Part shown: one piece after another, positions 236-9,660 of the stretch
Layout of the letters: every line of letters begins with the position of its first letter
How positions within the stretch are numbered: position 1 is the stretch's first letter
Source: a virus
Taxonomy: Duplodnaviria; Heunggongvirae; Uroviricota; Caudoviricetes
Reading direction: 5' to 3' (one strand)
IMG/VR virus record: IMGVR_UViG_2706794662_000014
Length of the DNA: 9,660 bases
Notes under the pieces: generated by a model
Seen by the model: only the letters and a program-made list of their open reading frames with translations
Database searches by the model: none
What the model was told of the DNA's origin: nothing
Program-made: the position numbers and the translations under genes

Positions 236-1318
236 TCATTTTCTCTGGCTGATCTTTACCGGATAACCATCCCGAAGATCAATTAAGTGCTCCGGTTCAG
301 AAGCAAACCATGCATAAGATCCCCACGCCAATTCTGGTATTGCCTTTTTAAAAGGCAGAGCACTTCTGTCCATAAATGCCGTAAGGAATGCAAGATTTTT
401 CTCGCTGAACCCAGCGTCAATAGCCAAATGAGTGAGAGTAACTTTTCGTTCCCTGTTTATAGGCCCATCTGTCGCAACTACTTCAGTGAAAACTACAAGC
501 ATGTCCGAACCCGTTCGGTCCTCTCCCAAATCAATCAAAATAATATCTGGAAGTGCTTTTGAGGCATCAATATTCAGCCCCAATGCTTTTGCCAATACAT
601 CATCCTGAGCAACAACTTTATTCCCGGATTCAGACAACCAGAGCACAGTTGGATTCTTAAGAAAATTAGGAGCAAAAACTTCGATGACGGCCTTAGCTAT
701 TGTACTTGACGGGCCCGGAGCTAAAGTTCTCTTCTCTCCATTTGGGAAAGTGACGACTACGGCATCAGCAGCAATCACTGCCCCTGATTTCAATAAACGC
801 AACCTAGCAAGAGCGGCTTTGTTCAAATGATTTTCTTGCCAGGAACTTATTGCACTCAGCAGCGAATCTCCTTCAAGCCCGGCATCAAAGAGTGCTGCAA
901 AAGAGCGATTCAAACTGTAACGAGGACGAGAGGATGTGGTGGGTATACCTTTACGCTCAACAATTGCATTGCAAGGTATTAGGCCATTTTTTATAGTTTC
1001 ATCACGTATTGGCTCACGCGTATTTTCCGCATACCATGCATCAGCAGGCCTTATCTTTTGTTTAGAGAAAGTCATCTTTACCCAGCTTTCTCTGGACGCA
1101 TCATCAGTAAGAGCAGCCTGCGAATCTCCCATACTTACAACCTGGCTGGGCCTTATCCATCGCCCCAGCCCCTCAACCGCACCAGCATAAAACATGACAA
1201 AAATTGTTTTTGCAGCTATTTCCCGAATTAAATATCCACGATTCTCAGTCCCTTCAGGGAAAATTAATTGTAATCTTTCCCGGATAACATTCAATGGGGG
1301 AACAACAGGCAGATTCAT
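236..1318 (-). CDS. Putative type II restriction endonuclease, PstI/BsuBI-like
   Basis: 360-codon ORF. ATG (1318-1316) overlaps the methyltransferase TGA stop (ATGA at 1315-1318), GGAG ~9-12 nt upstream. C-terminal segments LPDIILIDL...LVVFTEVVATDGPINRERK and AWGSYAWFASEPEHLI resemble my recollection of PstI-family enzymes (LPDVVVYD...LFLIEAVTSHGPISPKR). Position directly downstream of a methyltransferase. Family assignment is unverified recall. Confidence 0.6.
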   Translation of the reverse strand: MNLPVVPPLNVIRERLQLIFPEGTENRGYLIREIAAKTIFVMFYAGAVEGLGRWIRPSQVVSMGDSQAALTDDASRESWVKMTFSKQKIRPADAWYAENTREPIRDETIKNGLIPCNAIVERKGIPTTSSRPRYSLNRSFAALFDAGLEGDSLLSAISSWQENHLNKAALARLRLLKSGAVIAADAVVVTFPNGEKRTLAPGPSSTIAKAVIEVFAPNFLKNPTVLWLSESGNKVVAQDDVLAKALGLNIDASKALPDIILIDLGEDRTGSDMLVVFTEVVATDGPINRERKVTLTHLAIDAGFSEKNLAFLTAFMDRSALPFKKAIPELAWGSYAWFASEPEHLIDLRDGYPVKISQRK

Positions 1319-3147
1319 GCAATCATCACTCCATAGAAACCAGCGATAGTTCTCTCAATAATCCGTCTGTGGACGCCAGCATCAATTAACGATTGAATCT
1401 CCATCACCTGCTCCAGAGAAGGCAACGGGATTGAATTCAATTCATAGGCCGAAACAGCAACACTTCCGCTTATACACCTGAACGCCCGATCGACAACATG
1501 CGAATTAAGTAGCATATCAATAACATCAGGGCGAACCGCAGAGAACAATCCGTTTGAATATACAATATTAATATGGTTTTCAACTACTACGCCACCAGTT
1601 TCATCTATAAATCCCTGAGGTAAAATTGCCGCTAAAATCCTTCTGTCCTGTTCCTTCGATGTTGTCCGCTGAACAAGCACACATTCAGATTTTGTCACAA
1701 GGAAACCCTGTTGTGGGGTTATATCGATATAGGGAACATGATTTTTTCTGTCTGCACTAAAACGAAAACCAGCTGAAGTTATTGATTCCGCCCAGACTAA
1801 TGGGTAGCTATTTTTTCCTTTCGTCGTACGCAACTGCGACTTAAATCGATTCCAGACTAACTGACCTGTAGAGACTGAGTATCCCAGATCAGCTAAACGC
1901 GTAGACATCTGTTTTAATACATTAAGAAAACAGGCATCATCTTTAACGCGTGGCAAAAGCCACGTTGCTCCACCTTTTTCTATATCAACATTACCTATTT
2001 TCTCAATTTTTGCTTTGTTCAACCCCTTAGGGACAAGTGAGGATACCTGGGCCCGAACTTTATGTTCTCCCGCCTTGAATGCTGTCAACATTGTTTCCTG
2101 GAGAACATCGTCAAAGACCCCATCCCTGTCAGTGACGAAATCAAGGGCATACGGAGTAGTTTTTTCGGTCAAAAGGGTTCGCAGCGCGGTGAAATACTGC
2201 CCACCAAGAAAAGAAGTTGGCGTAAGAAATGCAATAACTCCTGTTTTCTCTTTAACCATGCGAACAGCTAAGTCGGTGAACAATCCATATAGATTTGCAT
2301 GACCAAATAACGAACGAGAATATTTTTCTCTCGTTTTAATATCGAGAGTGACACGTCCGTAAGGCGGATTCCCTACCACAAGATCATAACCAGAAAATTT
2401 ATCTTGCTGAAGCGCATCAGCAACAATAATTGTATCTTCAGGCAATCTACGTTTTACCTTTACACATAGTGGCATTAGTACAGATTCGAGCAATACCAAA
2501 CTCATCCAAGCCGCAAATGGATCGATTTCTATCCCCTTTAAACGACGACTGATTCTCCTCAACATCCATTCAGGGGAAGACCCCTTGTCTTTTTTTAACA
2601 TTCGAATGGCTACTGGTGCCAAAAATGCACCGCCACCACACGCAGGATCAATAACCGATGCATGAGAAAAATCAACACCAGACTTTTCAGCCAGGTCCAA
2701 GAGACGCGCTACCAAAGGTGGGGGGGTATAGTAAGCCCCCAATTCCGAACGGTAAGCGGATGGCAGCATTACCGTATAAATTGACCCAATCAGATATCCA
2801 GCGTCCTCCGCCGGAAATTGAGCAATAAGCTCACCTGTTCGTTCAGCGAGCTCGCGTGCATCACATGGAATGTCTTCTATGTAAACAGTGTGCGGTACTG
2901 CCCTCATTTTAATGCTGCTTTTTTGCTTTTTTGCAAGGGTATCCCAATATGCAGCTACGATGCTGAAGCAGTATGAGCGGGCATGCATCAACCTTGACTG
3001 CCCGGTTTTGTAATTGCCCGCATAACCTTTGGCCATGGCTTTACAAGTTTGATATCTTTCCAGATTAGAAAACTCATTATCTGTAAAAAAATCAAAATGT
3101 TGCACATTCATAATGTAAAATCCTAATGTATCAAACATGCGGGCCAT
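1315..3147 (-). CDS. N6-adenine (amino) DNA methyltransferase, gamma class, with large C-terminal target-recognition region
   Basis: 610-codon ORF. Motif X GAYYTPPPLV, motif I (AdoMet) VIDPACGGGAFL, motif IV VGNPPYG, in gamma-class order. About 330 aa follow motif IV. Start uncertain (ATG at 3147, 3138 or 3111). Confidence 0.85.
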   Translation of the reverse strand: MARMFDTLGFYIMNVQHFDFFTDNEFSNLERYQTCKAMAKGYAGNYKTGQSRLMHARSYCFSIVAAYWDTLAKKQKSSIKMRAVPHTVYIEDIPCDARELAERTGELIAQFPAEDAGYLIGSIYTVMLPSAYRSELGAYYTPPPLVARLLDLAEKSGVDFSHASVIDPACGGGAFLAPVAIRMLKKDKGSSPEWMLRRISRRLKGIEIDPFAAWMSLVLLESVLMPLCVKVKRRLPEDTIIVADALQQDKFSGYDLVVGNPPYGRVTLDIKTREKYSRSLFGHANLYGLFTDLAVRMVKEKTGVIAFLTPTSFLGGQYFTALRTLLTEKTTPYALDFVTDRDGVFDDVLQETMLTAFKAGEHKVRAQVSSLVPKGLNKAKIEKIGNVDIEKGGATWLLPRVKDDACFLNVLKQMSTRLADLGYSVSTGQLVWNRFKSQLRTTKGKNSYPLVWAESITSAGFRFSADRKNHVPYIDITPQQGFLVTKSECVLVQRTTSKEQDRRILAAILPQGFIDETGGVVVENHINIVYSNGLFSAVRPDVIDMLLNSHVVDRAFRCISGSVAVSAYELNSIPLPSLEQVMEIQSLIDAGVHRRIIERTIAGFYGVMIA

Positions 3148-4960: not shown

Positions 4961-5472
4961 TTACTTCACAACTCCCGGAAAGCTGACATTTGAACGCCAG
5001 CTATCCCAGTTAAACGTCACCCACCGACAACCGTTCATGGTCATGCGGTCCATAATCCTCTCACCAAGAAGCGTGCTCATTGCGGCATGATTCAGGTTTG
5101 TTAACATCCCGACACTGCACAGTGATGCTGTCCGGCGATCAATTATCTGGTGCAATACCACCTGCTCGTTTTTCGTCTCCCGCTGAATGCCTATTTCATC
5201 CAGGACCAGCAAATCAACCCCGCAAAGCTCCTGTAAAAATTTTTCACCGGATTTGCCGTTGTCGTAGCTGTCATGCAACACGCTCATGACATCAGACTCG
5301 GTGACGATAATCACGCTGCGCCCCTTCGCCATCAGCCGGTTACCCATCGCCGCTGCAAGGTGATTTTTCCCGGTGCCGGTTTTACCGCTGAACACAAAAT
5401 TCGTGCACCCGGTCATCAGTTCGTCAGCTATGGATTTGGCCTGGCTCAGCGCGTATTTTTGCCCGTCGTTCT
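4961..5472 (-). CDS. DnaC/IstB-like AAA+ helicase loader (phage P-position replication protein), 5' end lost in N gap
   Basis: Walker A GKTGTGKNHLAAA, Walker B LLVLDEIG, sensor-like TNLN. Lies downstream of the O-like gene. ORF-track residues upstream of the N run are artefactual. Confidence 0.8.
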
Positions 5473-5745
5473 GCACCTGATAANNNNNNNNNNNNNNNNN
5501 NNNNNNNNNNNNNNNNNNNNNNNNNNNNNNNNNNNNNNNNNNNNNNNNNNNNNNNNNNNNNNNNNNNNNNNNNNNNNNNNNNNNNNNNNNNNNNNNNNNN
5601 NNNNNNNNNNNNNNNNNNNNNNNNNNNNNNNNNNNNNNNNNNNNNNNNNNNNNNNNNNNNNNNNNNNNNNNNNNNNNNNNNNNNNNNNNNNNNNNNNNNN
5701 NNNNNNNNNNNNNNNNNNNNNNNNNNNNNNNNNNNNNNNNNNNNN
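5473..5745. other. Run of 273 N (assembly gap or masked sequence)
   Basis: Literal n characters in the sequence. It removes the 3' end of the O-like gene and the 5' end of the DnaC-like gene. Confidence 0.99.
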
Positions 5746-6722
5746 AACCAGGGGTTTTCAAAATTCCGGTCCGGCCCAAAAAACGTCGTCGCTCGCTGAA
5801 CAAATTCCGTTCCCGCTTTCCCGGTCGCCGCCAGGTATCTCGCGTAACGCCTCACACCATCCAGCATGGTCTCTGGTGGCACCCCCTCGCGCAATCTGGC
5901 CTTCCAGGCACTGAATGCGGATTTCTTCGGGTTTGCCCCGGCACGCAACGGGTATTCCCGCCAGACCTGTTCGAACACATCCGGATAATCCACTCGTCCC
6001 ACAGGCTGCCCGGTGTTTTCCGGGGCTACCCGATCGGCTTCCCGCTGAATGGCGGAATCGGCTTCAGGCTGCTGCAGTTGGAGTGATTGCTCCGGCCTTG
6101 CGGTCATCACCTGCTGCACAGCGCCCGAATCGGCTTTCAGCGCATACGCTGAATCGGCTTCCGGTGTCGAGCCTGCTGGCTGACCAGGATTGACGGTCTG
6201 AACATCCCCTGCCTGGTTCGTGGCGTTTTTTACGCCATGGACCATAGTGTTTTGATCTTCTTTATCTGTATCTTTATCTGTATCTGTCGTGACTCGTCGT
6301 GACATGTGCGTGACATTTCGTGACGCGCCGTGACAATCGCCATTTTGTTCCCGCTTTCTTTCCCTCTCTCGCTGCGCCCTCTTGCGCTCTGCAGGAGATT
6401 TTGCGGTTTGCGAAATATTGCCGTTGTCCTCTTTAAGCACCTGGCGTTTTTCCCATCCAGTGATTAAATCACCATCAAGTACCCGCCCCTGCATCGTCTG
6501 CAAAATTGAATCAATTACCTCTTCTGTCACGTCGAGCGCACTTGCCAAATCTTCTGTCGTGACATCAATGTGACCTCGCGTGACATTTCGTGACGCGCTC
6601 ACCAGGAGGTGGATATACACTGCCATCACTGTTGCAATTGGCTGCCCTGACACCCTGGCAATTGTTCGCCACTTAGGGTCATTTGGCATGTCATGCCATA
6701 ATCTGAGCCAGGCGTTAGCCAT
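5746..6722 (-). CDS. Phage replication initiation protein, O-like (YdaU-like), 3' end lost in N gap
   Basis: ATG 6722 (MANAWLRLW...) with RBS AGAGGTGA preferred over ORF-track GTG 6728. N-terminal HTH-like region, low-complexity acidic/Q-rich linker, C-terminal FEQVWREYP...KKSAFSAWKARL. Position between cII-position gene and DnaC-like loader; contains iteron arrays. Confidence 0.65.
6259..6334. repeat. Iteron array plus AT-rich 12-bp tandem repeat: candidate replication origin inside the O-like gene
   Basis: CGTGAC cores at 6288, 6298, 6309, 6319, 6329 (spacing 10-11 bp), preceded by TCTTTATCTGTA x2 (6259-6282). Confidence 0.6.
6523..6598. repeat. Second iteron-like cluster, in the N-terminal coding region of the O-like gene
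   Basis: CGTGAC at 6558, 6579, 6589; TGTGAC at 6569; inverted GTCACG at 6526-6531. The 21-mer GCGTGACATTTCGTGACGCGC at 6578-6598 is identical to 6308-6328. Confidence 0.55.
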
Positions 6723-6793
6723 ACTCACCTCTTCTGATACCGAATCTTTTTACTCACGAGTTGCCGGGAGCGATTCGATATGGCTATTGTCAG

Positions 6794-7219
6794 TCAATGT
6801 ACTGCCACAGCATTTCCTGCCGGGCCACCACGGTTCATCTGATTGAAACCGGCGATTGCCACTGCGACAAAATCATCAGCGTCTCTCACCAGTCGTTCAT
6901 GCGTCTCCACCAGTTCCCGAAAATAAGCTGAACTGTGGCTGCGCATTCGAGCCACCAGCGGAGGTGGCATTGCCCTTTCGATCGCAGGTAACAACGCCTG
7001 AATTTTTTCAACAGCGTCAGGGGTGTCTTTATCCAGCCAACGGAAAATCTTTTGGGTGTTGAGATAAAGCGTGTTGTGCTTGCTGTCGTTATGCAGAACC
7101 GGAAACGTCATTCCCAGTTCGAAATAAACCCTGGTTATTTCAGCTGCCGGAACTTTTTCACCGTCCGGATGCGCCCAGGCTTTCATCGCCATGCGGATGT
7201 GTTCATGCTTGATTTTCAT
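6794..7219 (-). CDS. cII-position protein, possibly YdaT-like
   Basis: 141-codon ORF, ATG 7219-7217 overlapping the Cro-like stop (ATGA). Sits between cro-like and O-like genes. YdaT assignment is from synteny and vague recall only. Confidence 0.6.
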   Translation of the reverse strand: MKIKHEHIRMAMKAWAHPDGEKVPAAEITRVYFELGMTFPVLHNDSKHNTLYLNTQKIFRWLDKDTPDAVEKIQALLPAIERAMPPPLVARMRSHSSAYFRELVETHERLVRDADDFVAVAIAGFNQMNRGGPAGNAVAVH

Positions 7220-7479
7220 GAATCAACCCCCGCCGATGGTTGTGTGTTAGCCTGAAACTCAGCAGGCAAGCCGTCAGTTGGGTTGGGGTAGGTTTTACTG
7301 TCAATCTCATGTGGGGTCACCACCCATCCCGTTGCTTCACACCAACGTAATATTTTTTCTCCTGTAAGTTTTGCACGCCCCGTTATAACGTGGCTGACCA
7401 TCCCTTGGGATGCGCCAACAATCTCAGCAAATGAACTCTGGGTTATATGAAAATGATGCAAATATTCTCCAAGATTCAT
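7216..7479 (-). CDS. Cro-like HTH transcriptional regulator
   Basis: ORF track starts at TTG 7506; first ATG at 7479 (MNLGEYLHH...). HTH segment SSFAEIVGASQGMVSHVITGRAKL. Divergent from the repressor gene, downstream of the PR-like promoter. Confidence 0.7.
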   Translation of the reverse strand: MNLGEYLHHFHITQSSFAEIVGASQGMVSHVITGRAKLTGEKILRWCEATGWVVTPHEIDSKTYPNPTDGLPAEFQANTQPSAGVDS

Positions 7480-7513
7480 AATCCGCCCTATGTGATGTGT
7501 TACCAATGCATAA

Positions 7514-7542
7514 TTAATAGCACTGTTATTTTTAAAAGTAAA
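7514..7542 (-). promoter_or_regulatory. PR-like promoter for the cro-like operon
   Basis: On minus strand: -35 TTTACT (plus 7537-7542), 17-nt spacer, -10 TATTAA (plus 7514-7519); ~27-nt leader to ATG 7479. Confidence 0.45.
7516..7530. promoter_or_regulatory. Operator-like 15-bp palindromic site OR-a (AATAGCACTGTTATT)
   Basis: Half-sites AATAGC / AATAAC around a 3-bp centre; overlaps the PR-like -10. Member of a four-copy motif family. Confidence 0.6.
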
Positions 7543-7555
7543 TAGTGATGCTATT
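7541..7555. promoter_or_regulatory. Operator-like 15-bp palindromic site OR-b (AATAGTGATGCTATT)
   Basis: Centre 25 bp from OR-a; overlaps the PR-like -35 and abuts the PRM-like -35. Confidence 0.6.
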
Positions 7556-7583
7556 TCAAAGTGATTAGCAATCTTATTAGAAT
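7555..7583 (+). promoter_or_regulatory. PRM-like promoter for the repressor gene, possibly giving a leaderless transcript
   Basis: -35 TTCAAA (7555-7560), 17-nt spacer, -10 TAGAAT (7578-7583); predicted start ~7590, at the ATG (7591). No clear Shine-Dalgarno before ATG 7591. Confidence 0.4.
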
Positions 7584-7590
7584 TGGATGT

Positions 7591-8091
7591 ATGAAAAGAA
7601 AATCATTGTCAGACACCGACCTCAACGCCGCCAGAAGACTGAAAGAAATCTGGATGGCAAAGAAATCTCAGTTGGGATTGACTCAGGAACGTGCGGCGGA
7701 AATTATGGGGTTTTCAACACAAGGGGCGGTAAGTCACTACCTAAATGGTCAAACCCCACTAAACCTTGAGGCTGTTCTAAAGTTTGCTGGCTTACTGAAA
7801 GTTCCCCCTGAGTCAATCAGGCCAGACATGGTAGATTTGCTGCAAATTGCAAGGATGTATTGTCGAGAACCACAGCAAGATAACATAGTCGCATTACCAG
7901 CAGACACAGAACAAACAGAGGATGAACTACCGTTTGCCGTAGAGCCGATGGAACGAGATTTAATCCATACGTTCAGAGCTTTTCCGAAAGAAGATCAAGA
8001 ACACATGCTTCAGGAGATGAAAGATAAAAAAGAATCAATGGATCGTACGGTTGCGCGGTGGTTAGCTGCACAAAAAGGCCGTCGCGCCTAA
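7591..8091 (+). CDS. Prophage repressor, lambda cI N-terminal-domain-like HTH, no S24/LexA-type cleavage domain; possibly PaaR2-like regulator of the downstream toxin-antitoxin pair
   Basis: ATG 7591 (MKRKSLSDTDLNAARRLKEIW...) preferred over ORF-track GTG 7561. First ~80 aa parallel lambda cI as I recall it ([35 protein letters not shown] vs LSDTDLNAARRLKEIWMAKKSQLGLTQERAAEIMG). Total 166 aa; C-terminal half acidic with no Ser/Lys peptidase motifs. Confidence 0.75.
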   Translation: MKRKSLSDTDLNAARRLKEIWMAKKSQLGLTQERAAEIMGFSTQGAVSHYLNGQTPLNLEAVLKFAGLLKVPPESIRPDMVDLLQIARMYCREPQQDNIVALPADTEQTEDELPFAVEPMERDLIHTFRAFPKEDQEHMLQEMKDKKESMDRTVARWLAAQKGRRA

Positions 8092-8110
8092 ATCAGAGGA
8101 GATATGTAAA

Positions 8111-8305
8111 ATGAGTACAGTCCTTTCCCCAATGGTTTCAGAATTTGAGACAGTTGAGCAAGAAAATAGTTACAACGAATGGCTGCGGGCCAAAGTAGCA
8201 GCAAGCCTCGCGGATCCCCGCCCGGCGATTCCGCATGATGAGGTAATGGCGGAAATGGAACAAATTATTGCCCAAATTGCTGCTGCAACTCACAGAGGTG
8301 AATAA
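8111..8305 (+). CDS. paaA2: Type II antitoxin, PaaA2-like, partner of ParE-family toxin
   Basis: 64-codon ORF, RBS AGAGGAG (8095-8101) 9 nt before ATG, TAA stop overlapping the toxin ATG (TAATG at 8302-8307). Sequence LSPMVSEFETVEQENSYNEWLRAKVAASLADPRPAIPHDEV matches my recollection of PaaA2 from E. coli O157:H7; symbol is from memory. Confidence 0.7.
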   Translation: MSTVLSPMVSEFETVEQENSYNEWLRAKVAASLADPRPAIPHDEVMAEMEQIIAQIAAATHRGE

Positions 8306-8595
8306 TGTTACCCGTTTTATGGCTACCATCTGCTCGTGATGATTTGCGCCAGATCGTAGCCTACATAGCTAAAGAAAATCCCGCGGCAGCACGCAGAATG
8401 AAAATTCGAATTGAAACATCCGTTTTGCCGCTCACAGAGCATCCTTACCTGTATCCTCCAAGCGAGCGAGTTCTTGGTCTTCGTGAAATTGTAACTCATC
8501 CTAACTACATCATCCTTTACCGAGTAACAGCATCAAGCATAGAAGTAGTAAATATTGTGCATTCTCGAAGACAGTATCCAGGCAAAAACAGTTAA
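8305..8595 (+). CDS. parE: ParE/RelE-superfamily toxin (ParE2-like)
   Basis: 96 codons. Typical ParE pattern: MLPVLWLPSARDDLRQIVAYIA...PYLYPPSERVLGLREIVTHPNYIILYRV...IEVVNIVHSRR. Translationally coupled to the upstream antitoxin. Confidence 0.85.
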   Translation: MLPVLWLPSARDDLRQIVAYIAKENPAAARRMKIRIETSVLPLTEHPYLYPPSERVLGLREIVTHPNYIILYRVTASSIEVVNIVHSRRQYPGKNS

Positions 8596-8611
8596 TTATT
8601 CCCGCCGACAG

Positions 8612-8636
8612 AACCACCTTAGGGTGGTTTTTTCTT
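8612..8636 (+). terminator. Rho-independent terminator ending the repressor/toxin-antitoxin transcript
   Basis: Stem AACCACC (8612-8618), loop TTAG, stem GGTGGTT (8623-8629), then T-tract TTTTTCTT to 8636; 17 nt after the parE stop. Confidence 0.75.
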
Positions 8637-8651
8637 GCCCCAACAAAAAAC

Positions 8652-8666
8652 AATAGCGATGCTATT
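8652..8666. promoter_or_regulatory. Operator-like 15-bp palindromic site OL-a (AATAGCGATGCTATT)
   Basis: Perfect palindrome around a GAT centre; overlaps the -35 of the PL-like promoter. Confidence 0.6.
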
Positions 8667-8694
8667 TACATCAAAAAAATAATGATGCTATTGT
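8665..8694 (+). promoter_or_regulatory. PL-like early promoter
   Basis: -35 TTTACA (8665-8670), 18-nt spacer, -10 TATTGT (8689-8694); both hexamers overlapped by operator sites; sits just downstream of the terminator. Confidence 0.45.
8678..8692. promoter_or_regulatory. Operator-like 15-bp palindromic site OL-b (AATAATGATGCTATT)
   Basis: Centre 26 bp from OL-a; overlaps the -10 of the PL-like promoter. Confidence 0.6.
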
Positions 8695-8873
8695 TTCAGG
8701 CGTCAACCCTCCCCGCCCCACAGAATGCAGGGCAATACTTCGAGTTACCAGACAGTGGTCAGGGGTTAAGTAGCCAGCCCGAGGCGTAAGAACATGACGG
8801 CAGGGTTCAATCTTTAACTATGCAGCAGGTTTTTTGTTCCGCCACCCCGGCGTTAAGGGGAAATGAGGTCAGC

Positions 8874-9026
8874 ATGGATACTATCGATCTTGGCAACAAC
8901 GAATCTCTGGTGTGCGGCGTGTTCCCTAACCAGGATGGAACGTTTACCGCCATGACGTATACCAAAAGCAAAACGTTTAAAACCGAATCTGGCGCGCGTT
9001 GCTGGTTAGCCAGAAACACTGACTGA
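8874..9026 (+). CDS. Small hypothetical protein (50 aa), first gene after the PL-like promoter
   Basis: ATG 8874 with GAGG (8865-8868) 5 nt upstream is preferred over the ORF-track ATG 8820, which has no RBS. TGA stop overlaps the next start (TGATG). One Cys pair, no recognisable motif. Confidence 0.45.
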   Translation: MDTIDLGNNESLVCGVFPNQDGTFTAMTYTKSKTFKTESGARCWLARNTD

Positions 9027-9403
9027 TGAGGCTGACGATGGAATTTAAAGATTTACCGTCTGATGTACAGAAAACAGCAGCTCATACATTGCATTCTGTG
9101 CTGCGAGAAATCGGGAAAGATATTGCAAGCGAGCCAGCAAAAGATCTGGCCCGGAAAATCAAGACCGCTTTCGTTGAGCTTTATAATGTTGGCACTGACT
9201 CTGAAACTGTCGAGACCAAGACCGTAAGTTCACCAATATTCTCACTTGAGCCAAGCGTATTATCAGGTGAAATATGCACCGAGATTTCCAGCGAACTGCT
9301 TCCGGTAATACGAGAAGCAATTCGCCGTCGCGGTTTGGATGGAAGTTATGATCATGACGTTCTGCAAGTTCTCAGGACAATGGTGACTTCACTGGGGATT
9401 TGA
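9026..9403 (+). CDS. Hypothetical protein (125 aa; or 121 aa from ATG 9038)
   Basis: ATG 9026 overlaps the upstream stop; alternative ATG 9038 has GAGG (9028-9031) 6 nt upstream. Acidic, helical-looking; not arginine-rich as lambda N would be. Confidence 0.5.
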   Translation: MRLTMEFKDLPSDVQKTAAHTLHSVLREIGKDIASEPAKDLARKIKTAFVELYNVGTDSETVETKTVSSPIFSLEPSVLSGEICTEISSELLPVIREAIRRRGLDGSYDHDVLQVLRTMVTSLGI

Positions 9404-9535
9404 TCCCTGCGTCCTCTAAGCTTTTGATATAGCGGTCCTCCAAGAAGCGGTAAATTTTGTCGAAATCATCTTTTCCCTCTGGTTTATTCAGAGGATTACA
9501 GGACCCGTAAGTAGCGGCATACATTTCAACCGTTT

Positions 9536-9660
9536 GGTAATGACTCCAACTTATTGATAGTGTTTTATGTTCAGATAATGCCCGATGACTTTGTCATGCA
9601 GCTCCACCGATTTTGAGAACGACAGCGACTTCCGTCCCAGCCGTGCCAGGTGCTGCCTCA
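9536..9660 (-). mobile_element. IS1 insertion sequence, partial (right inverted-repeat end; element continues right of the window)
   Basis: 9536-9660 reads as the reverse complement of the last ~125 nt of IS1 as I recall it (GGTAATGACTCCAACTTATTGATAGTGTTTTATGTTCAGATAATG...). insB 3' end on the minus strand, TAA at 9551-9553. Same orientation as the copy at 1-83. Confidence 0.9.

Follow-up and report, generated by a model that had tools for sequence, protein, structure and literature searches.

Three-component toxin-antitoxin (TA) operons of the paaR-paaA-parE type were, according to the papers that cite that work, first described by Hallez 2010. In the CP-933P prophage of Escherichia coli O157:H7, one such operon is part of the switch between lysis and lysogeny: paaA2-parE2 replaces rexAB, YdaS corresponds to Cro, and YdaT to CII (Hallez 2010; PMC8630535; PMC9986795), while PaaR2 replaces lambda CI (Prolic-Kalinsek 2023; PMC9986795) and has been characterized experimentally as the CI analogue of this prophage (Jurenas 2021; PMC8630535). 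The latter study reported an OR/OL/PL layout, a bistable switch, and a PL933P promoter repressed by PaaR2, demonstrated a leaderless paaR2 mRNA by 5' RACE, and described PaaR2 as an octamer that “lacks the peptidase motif,” does not respond to mitomycin C, and has no sequence similarity to CI. Altogether, the literature on the CP-933P homolog covers DNA binding, leaderless mRNA, octamerization, bistability, PaaA lability, and addiction. Here we analyze a 9,660-nucleotide (nt) stretch of DNA from the virus record IMGVR_UViG_2706794662_000014 (hereafter, the window; all coordinates refer to the whole window, with position 1 being its first letter), which contains a repressor gene followed by paaA and parE. 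This arrangement has already been published for E. coli O157:H7, and the window represents another, heteroimmune member of that group. What is particular to it is a third specificity type, in which the N-terminal domain of the repressor is a bona fide homolog of lambda CI.

In all probability, the region constitutes the switch between lysis and lysogeny (immunity switch) of a YdaS/YdaT-type (Qin/CP-933-like) lambdoid prophage, with a CI-equivalent repressor and a PaaA-ParE cargo in the slot that holds rexAB in lambda. The repressor gene (7591..8091, plus strand; stop codon at 8089-8091) encodes a protein of 166 amino acids (aa), in which a lambda-CI-like N-terminal domain (residues 1 to 90) is connected by a linker to a DicA/PaaR-type tail (residues ~119 to 166). 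Its only Pfam matches, HTH_3 and HTH_31, cover residues 27 to 75, and its sole match in a phmmer search of solved structures is the N-terminal domain of lambda cI (PDB ID 1lmb; 2.9e-9), with ~40% identity over 80 aa. In the AlphaFold model, which has a mean pLDDT of 77, five N-terminal helices (residues 8 to 90, pLDDT of 83 to 93) are followed by a disordered linker (residues 92 to 112) and, in the monomer, a helix-turn-long-helix tail (residues 119 to 165). Foldseek superimposed the N-terminal domain on the lambda N-terminal-domain structures with TM scores of 0.81 to 0.93, rmsd of 1.1 to 2.0 Å, and 37 to 40% identity. A 166-aa repressor resembling the cI N-terminal domain had been proposed at these coordinates in a sequence-only reading of the window, and both searches bear this out. 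The lambda-type residues retained in the alignment include the KRK N-terminal arm and Gln33 (Q32 in the window protein), and acidic residues (E33 and E37) also occupy the positive-control positions Glu34 and Asp38. The functional meaning of the arm and of residues Gln33, Glu34, and Asp38 is well established in lambda genetics. The recognition helix is unlike that of lambda and contains a one-residue insertion, which fits an operator sequence that differs from the lambda one.

This repressor is not a full member of the CI family: its C-terminus of ~48 aa forms two helices and is homologous to the DicA/PaaR tail. The tail matches the NCBIfam DicA model at 7e-8 (residues 106 to 162), with a score that, owing to the different N-terminal domain, falls under the cutoff for the whole protein, and it shows 29% identity over 51 aa (2e-6) to residues 80 to 130 of DicA from E. 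coli K-12. In the alignment, the HTH is followed by the DicA/PaaR tail motif, L-L-x-x-F-x-A-F/L-P-E-x-x-Q ... A-R-W-L-A-A-Q-K. Judging by these alignments and the structural model, the protein appears to be a lambda-CI-type DNA-binding domain fused to a short DicA/PaaR-type tail. The synteny of 18 loci places DicA/PaaR-type repressors in the cI position, beside a divergent cro-like gene. In Foldseek searches against PDB, only the N-terminal domain of the repressor had matches and the tail had none; no solved PaaR2-like structure was found by these or by sequence searches. Lambda CI has an S24 (LexA-like) C-terminal domain, whereas in the window protein no Peptidase_S24 or LexA domain is detected by Pfam and the model shows just two C-terminal helices, in agreement with the initial proposal that a LexA-type autocleavage domain is missing. 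Accordingly, no RecA-mediated cleavage is expected. The repressor-coding region also contains a perfect 12-nt inverted repeat, GATTGACTCAGG at 7676-7687 and CCTGAGTCAATC at 7807-7818, with arms 119 nt apart, which may be due to chance.

The repressor stop codon is separated from paaA by a gap of 19 bp, which holds a GAGGAG Shine-Dalgarno sequence. The antitoxin PaaA (8111..8305, plus strand; 64 aa) consists of a sole PaaA2 domain (Pfam ID PF21217; 3e-23, 81.9 bits against a cutoff of 27), with no DNA-binding domain, and matches the PaaA2 structure (PDB ID 3zbe) at 1.4e-23. The toxin ParE (8305..8595, plus strand; 96 aa) covers positions 1 to 89 of the 89 positions of the Pfam ParE_toxin profile (1.8e-17) and matches ParE2 (PDB ID 5cw7) over residues 1 to 93 at 6.7e-37. 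The ATG of parE overlaps the paaA stop codon by 1 nt, an arrangement from which translational coupling of parE to paaA is predicted. The antitoxin and ParE toxin that had been recognized 19 bp after the repressor gene are thus assigned to their families by these profile matches.

The predicted operators define the boundaries of this unit. The palindrome AATAGCNNNGCTATT, with up to 2 mismatches allowed, occurs in the 9.66-kb window at exactly four sites, 7516, 7541, 8652, and 8678, against a chance expectation of 0.41, and none of 200 shuffles reached four. These are the 15-bp sites to which the sequence-only reading had pointed at 7516-7555 and 8652-8692, and they stand as predicted operators. 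The equivalent of OR1 (AATAGCACTGTTATT, 7516..7530) overlaps the −10 element of PR, and the equivalent of OR2 (AATAGTGATGCTATT, 7541..7555) abuts the −35 element of PRM, its center being at about −43 of that promoter. A tentative, weak equivalent of OR3 (ATTAGCAATCTTATT, 7564..7578), with 3 mismatches, is located inside PRM; at the OR3 position (−27) of the Citrobacter locus L015 there is a 2-mismatch site. The palindrome scan also yielded the OL-equivalent pair (8652..8692), AATAGCGATGCTATT at 8652-8666 and AATAATGATGCTATT at 8678-8692. Counted from a PRM start at 7591, the operator centers are at about −68 and −43, with the weak third at −20, which matches the OR1/OR2/OR3 layout of lambda.

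The promoter scan identified a sigma-70-like PRM promoter (TTCAAA-17-TAGAAT; 7555..7583, plus strand), whose −10 element ends only 7 nt before the ATG at 7591, so that the repressor mRNA is predicted to be leaderless, like that of lambda cI; the predicted transcription start approximately coincides with the ATG, which fits the start at ~7590 suggested earlier. The PaaR1- and PaaR2-type loci have their −10 element at the same distance from the ATG. The scan also found a PL-like promoter (TTTACA-18-TATTGT; 8665..8694, plus strand) that overlaps both OL sites and reads into ydfA. A PR-like promoter (7514..7542, minus strand) was inferred by eye from the −35 element TTTACT (7542-7537), a 17-nt spacer, and the −10 element TATTAA (7519-7514), and it is related to its two operators in the same way as PL is to the OL pair. 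Just before the OL/PL-like region, the repressor-TA operon ends in an intrinsic terminator (8610..8636, plus strand), with a 9-bp stem at 8610-8631 and a T-run extending to 8636; its fold, at −15.1 kcal/mol (z = −3.3; an energy matched by 1 of 200 shuffles), confirms the strong terminator recognized from the sequence. Finally, the predicted YdaT operator TTGATTTTCATGAATCAA (7209..7226), at the ydaS/ydaT junction, marks the PRE-like region; it alone in the window matches, with zero mismatches, the published YdaT site, TTGATTN6AATCAA, which in CP-933P lies at the end of ydaS beside a PRE-like promoter (PMC9986795).

The topology of the locus is the same as in lambda's immunity region, cro-OR-cI-rexA-rexB-OL/PL, in which the cargo is cotranscribed with the repressor, as is also proposed for the window. 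The TA pair is located between the repressor gene and OL/PL, which places it in the rexA/rexB slot, as the initial reading had it. The differences from lambda include a 15-bp operator of unlike sequence, a ParE-type TA pair instead of RexAB, a shorter distance between OR and OL (1.1 kb versus 2.4 kb in lambda), and the replacement of Cro and CII by YdaS and YdaT. In the Qin prophage of E. coli K-12, DicA has a C-terminal module homologous to that of the window repressor, whereas its N-terminal domain and operators differ. In Qin, dicA is directly followed by ydfA, with no cargo, which makes the TA pair an insertion relative to Qin; the ydfA DNA is 90% identical in the two. Since the repressor operators flank the whole unit, the regulator of the TA pair and the immunity repressor would be the same protein, an idea that was part of the initial reading and had already been published for CP-933P.

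We propose the following mechanism. The N-terminal domain would bind the 15-bp palindromes of the type AATAGCnnnGCTATT at OR (7516, 7541, and the weak site at 7564) and at OL (8652 and 8678), and the helical DicA/PaaR-type tail would provide oligomerization in place of the S24 domain. Repressor bound at OR1 and OR2 would shut off PR, and with it ydaS-ydaT, and the same protein at the site near −43 would probably stimulate its own leaderless transcript from PRM; at OL, it would shut off PL. YdaS would act as Cro, and YdaT as CII on a PRE-like promoter. The paaA-parE genes would be a two-gene “moron” cargo inserted between the repressor gene and OL. No promoter-like sites were called in the promoter scan between 7707 and 8110. 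A single 9/12 consensus match inside the repressor gene (7678-7706) was considered as an internal TA promoter and is treated as a chance match because the total of 4 promoter-like sites does not exceed that of the shuffles (2.9 ± 1.7). With neither its own promoter nor a DNA-binding antitoxin, the TA pair would be expressed solely on the distal part of the repressor transcript, originating at PRM or at the YdaT-activated PRE and ending at the terminator at 8610-8636. The lysogenic state would then continuously supply the labile PaaA, and loss or replacement of the immunity region would free ParE, resulting in postsegregational “addiction” that would stabilize the region.

Several points weigh against this interpretation. 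For binding, the transcript map, toxicity, and addiction, we extrapolate from a homolog that shares with the window repressor only the C-terminal ~45 aa, and by this analogy the CP-933P properties (DNA binding, leaderless mRNA, octamerization, bistability, lability, and addiction) would transfer to the window locus. In CP-933P itself, ParE2 activity was undetected in either state of the switch (PMC8630535), so that support for the addiction role comes from plasmid stabilization assays only. With regard to the control region, the OR3 equivalent, given its 3 mismatches, is not significant alone, and PR is weak by consensus and was missed by the promoter scan because the last base of its −10 element is A. 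In addition, as described below, the window belongs to a remnant without lytic genes, so “immunity” would be vestigial here.

Comparison with the two O157:H7 systems clarifies what the window shares with them. The paaR2-paaA2-parE2 operon of CP-933P/Sp12 (the source of 3zbe and 5cw7) has the same gene order and spacing as the window, and CP-933P also shares the neighboring genes, with ydaS and ydaT on the left and ydfA (DUF1391) on the right, as well as the predicted leaderless mRNA, the OR/OL/PL layout, the lack of S24, and the YdaT site at the ydaS/ydaT junction. However, its repressor N-terminal domain, its operators (GTTTAGTAA-type repeats versus AATAGCnnnGCTATT in the window), and its Cro-like partner are unrelated in sequence to those of the window, which makes the two heteroimmune. 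CP-933P PaaR2 is also shorter, 123 aa versus 166 aa, and the N-terminal domain of the window repressor is a detectable lambda CI homolog, unlike PaaR2 as it has been described. Two reference loci were used for alignment. L004 is of the PaaR2 type: its regulator starts with MQKKE, as in PMC8630535, and its ParE is identical to the ParE2 in PDB over the 92 residues encoded. L002 is the second O157:H7 copy, from strain ATCC 43894, and is presumably the CP-933M homolog mentioned in PMC8630535. The window ParE is 86% identical to that of L002 and 67% identical to that of L004, and the respective values for PaaA are 77% and 75%. The repressors align only at their C termini, over 64 aa (56% identity) with L002 and over 44 aa (residues ~123-166, 52% identity) with L004; these tail alignments to PaaR1 and PaaR2 have E values of 4e-15 to 6e-23, whereas no alignment is obtained between the N-terminal DNA-binding domains. 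We therefore reject orthology to PaaR2 or PaaR1 over the full length, as only the C-terminal 44 to 64 aa align. Hence, the match to PaaR2-PaaA2-ParE2 that had been suggested from the sequence holds for the arrangement and for the homology of PaaA and ParE and, in the repressor, for the C-terminal module of ~45 aa but not for the whole protein; the TA pair is clearly homologous to PaaA2/ParE2 but is closer to the second O157 copy.

The L002 repressor has 133 aa and a different HTH N-terminal domain, and the operators, terminator, and ydaS of this locus also differ from those of the window. DNA homology to L002-type loci breaks off between 7290/7326 and 7963, a segment that comprises most of ydaS, OR, and repressor codons 1 to 124, and the terminator-OL segment (8596-8700) is replaced as well. 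Homology is retained between 7964 and the end of paaA-parE and resumes at 8704; in the comparison with L002 itself, it is continuous from 7964 to 9017. The loss of the cassette DNA, combined with the retention of the tail and TA DNA, identifies the window as a heteroimmune relative with a swapped specificity cassette. The PL leader (8704-8870) is ~90% identical to some heteroimmune loci, where the flanking immunity DNA is either replaced or ~76 to 80% identical. The segment 8704-8875 shows no unusual stability (z of +0.86) and no Rfam match, and a search of the entire window with Rfam at the gathering threshold gave zero structured RNAs; the conservation of the leader might be due to a nut-like site or to a recombination joint.

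The operator scan was extended to all fetched loci, 7 of which carry the window-type N-terminal domain. In all 7, operators are found at exactly −75 (OR1) and −50 (OR2) from the repressor ATG, and there are no such sites at these positions in loci with other N-terminal domains; the operators thus go with the N-terminal domain. So does the Cro-like partner: YdaS identity is 61 to 99% in loci with the window-type domain and otherwise at most 37%, or there is no match. The position of the next operators, counted from the repressor stop codon, depends on what occupies the slot: +190 with nothing in it, +561 with PaaA-ParE, ~+1000 (a single site) with HigB-HigA, and +2194 with HipA_2 and DUF3037. 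Loci with this N-terminal domain contain in the slot PaaA-ParE, HigBA (as in Salmonella diarizonae, L010, 4612-5339), a HipA-like protein with DUF3037 (L007, 4787-6360, where the HipA_2 and DUF3037 pair matches the PADLOC candidate system PDC-M66), or nothing, so that the cargos inserted between the repressor gene and OL are interchangeable, PaaA-ParE being one of several. Behind tail-bearing repressors of other genera, the slot contains BstA, PDC-M66-like genes, unknown open reading frames (ORFs), or nothing. Thus, in Pectobacterium, BstA (L017, 4665-5582; PADLOC, 7e-125) follows a repressor that shares only the C-terminal module. The estimated frequency of the tail without the TA pair rests on ~18 loci and is not a census; the cross-species contig scan gave 4 loci.

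Protein searches found the N-terminal domain in 166-aa proteins from E. coli, E. albertii, and Shigella and in a 154-aa protein from Salmonella diarizonae, as well as in metagenomic proteins of 244 to 255 aa, in which the window-type lambda-like N-terminal domain is followed by a PaaR1-like HTH and then by the DicA/PaaR tail. Tandem-HTH repressors (P0013 to P0023; loci L007 to L009 and L012 to L015) are found in the cI position of related prophages, with OR and OL of the window type. PaaA-ParE-like DNA occurs in 842 of 5,426 complete E. coli genomes.

These comparisons bear on the alternative that the three genes form an autonomous TA system in the sense of Hallez 2010, with the HTH protein as a dedicated TA regulator (a “split antitoxin”) and the prophage location being incidental. 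Such a system would account for the co-orientation and tight packing of the genes, the lack of a DNA-binding domain in PaaA, and the conservation of the C-terminal module, paaA, and parE as one DNA block across heteroimmune loci. It is also in line with the distribution of the genes: the window-type N-terminal domain matched 72 complete E. coli genomes, and, in a separate count, 72 genomes cover at least 80% of the repressor-plus-TA query. However, this type of repressor, or its tail, occurs without PaaA-ParE, in the company of BstA, HigBA, HipA_2 with DUF3037, unknown genes, or no gene at all, and the tail is common to Qin DicA, which has no TA pair. A second operator pair is located at PL, outside the TA operon, the Cro-like partner goes with the N-terminal domain, and the published CP-933P data (PMC8630535) favor the role of immunity repressor. 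We therefore regard an autonomous TA system as quite improbable and favor the immunity switch with a PaaA-ParE cargo.

The range of cargos raises another alternative, that PaaA-ParE in the rex slot is a defense module that aborts superinfection, with host shutoff or degradation of PaaA freeing ParE, and that prophage stabilization is secondary. Such a role has been proposed for other prophage TA pairs, and the slot itself suggests one, as it contains rexAB in lambda and BstA or the PDC-M66 candidate system in the loci with related repressors. BstA occupies the same position, 3' of the prophage repressor gene and presumably on its promoter, although the proteins and their mechanism are unrelated to PaaA-ParE, and the cI-N interval is a defense hotspot expressed from a strong lysogenic promoter (Owen 2021; PMC8585504). 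One phage genome record, that of phage Evi, contains the module as well and is the only phage record that carries a ParE2-type copy in the protein search, where it is found with a PaaR2-type repressor; no isolated phage with the exact module was found at the DNA level. On the other hand, PaaA, ParE, and the repressor match no PADLOC model, and membership of this locus in a known defense system was rejected on that basis. The cited papers on PaaA2-ParE2 report no phage defense phenotype, and, as mentioned above, ParE2 activation was unseen in either state of the CP-933P switch. While this alternative is compatible with the architecture of the immunity switch and does not exclude it, as the primary role of the pair we consider it rather unlikely.

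The window represents a prophage remnant from Shigella sonnei that is bounded by IS1. It is 99.9% identical to the S. sonnei chromosome, and its first 84 and last 131 bases (1-84 and 9530-9660) are IS1 ends. The S. sonnei genomes carry this element as a fragment of ~9.4 kb, which adjoins ydfZ/ydfI and lies between two same-strand IS1 copies (in L020, these copies, at 1685-2382 and 11963-12660, bracket the remnant of the window). The chromosomal neighborhood of Qin on the K-12 map, on the ydfZ side, is similar. No integrase, lysis, or structural genes were found in the ~9.4-kb IS1-bounded element of the S. sonnei genomes, which invites the explanation that the locus is an inert relic, left over from a dead prophage, in decay, and without a function today. 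Against it, all three ORFs are intact, with PaaA and ParE being full-length when compared to their solved homologs, and the operators, promoters, and terminator are intact as well. Relative to diverged relatives, dN/dS is 0.08 for the repressor, 0.05 to 0.16 for PaaA, and 0.06 to 0.13 for ParE, for an overall range of 0.05 to 0.2, which points to purifying selection; synonymous sites are close to saturated. About 6000 blocks of the assembly collection, among them complete S. sonnei chromosomes, contain the exact repressor protein. An inert relic thus appears to be the least likely of the alternatives considered here, and we retain the repressor with its TA cargo as the explanation of the locus. 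As a composite-transposon-like structure, the remnant would be expected to undergo easy IS1-IS1 deletion, yet its repressor protein is present in those ~6000 blocks.

Two genes on the minus strand, cro-like and ydaT-type, make the immunity region complete. The ydaS/cro-like gene (7216..7479, minus strand; 87 aa), divergent from the repressor gene, shows a weak Pfam HTH_3 match and a match to PHROG 35 (transcriptional repressor, 8e-17), and its start agrees with the RefSeq start in L001. The ydaT-type gene (6794..7219, minus strand; 141 aa), coding for the putative functional analogue of CII, matches Pfam YdaT_toxin (5e-9) and PHROG 163 (“CII-like transcriptional activator,” 3e-40), and its product is 75 to 87% identical to YdaT from the O157-type loci. 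On the other side, ydfA (8871..9026, plus strand; Pfam DUF1391, 3e-28), the first gene of the PL operon, delimits the slot. It is followed by an ORF of 125 aa (9026-9403, plus strand) that matches PHROG 33007 (unknown function, 5e-80) and no Pfam family, with IS1 directly 3' of it in the S. sonnei genomes. To the left of ydaT, there are O-like and DnaC-like replication genes, DUF1627, DUF977, and a BsuBI/PstI-type restriction-modification (R-M) pair. A run of 262 N at 5484-5745 masks ~318 nt at the junction of the two replication genes, and the listed ORFs at 4961-5803 and 5424-6728 are read-through artifacts of this mask. The R-M pair (236-3147, minus strand), which consists of a type II restriction endonuclease of the BsuBI/PstI family (236-1318) and an Eco57I/N6-type methyltransferase (1315-3147) with a 4-nt overlap between the genes, gives the remnant a second module that could be addictive. 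The annotation of one S. sonnei genome (L023) splits the methylase gene into two pieces.

A more speculative extension, to which we assign a low probability, holds that, behind a prophage repressor with a DicA/PaaR tail, the interval up to OL is reserved for conflict genes expressed in lysogeny and that PaaA-ParE serves as a repressor-coupled sensor. If so, any silencing of PRM would stop the supply of PaaA and release ParE, be it by superinfection with a heteroimmune phage, by recombination that replaces the immunity cassette, or by IS1-IS1 deletion of the remnant. The conservation of the C-terminal module and paaA-parE as one block could likewise stem from a physical coupling of the repressor tail to the PaaA-ParE complex. 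PaaA-ParE would then be an abortive infection device and also the reason why an IS1-bounded fragment carrying an R-M system persists throughout Shigella sonnei.

The central idea, that an immunity repressor doubles as the regulator of a ParE-type TA pair in the rex slot, is already in the literature, and the window opens no new question in that respect; its value is comparative. The well-defined operator and its lambda-like spacing would make the system easy to dissect, and the remnant appears to be widespread in Shigella sonnei assemblies. In the related loci, three modules are shuffled independently of one another: specificity (the N-terminal domain, the operators, and the Cro partner), the oligomerization tail, and the cargo. 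With the window repressor, the “functional analogy” between PaaR2 and CI becomes, for part of the family, demonstrable homology.

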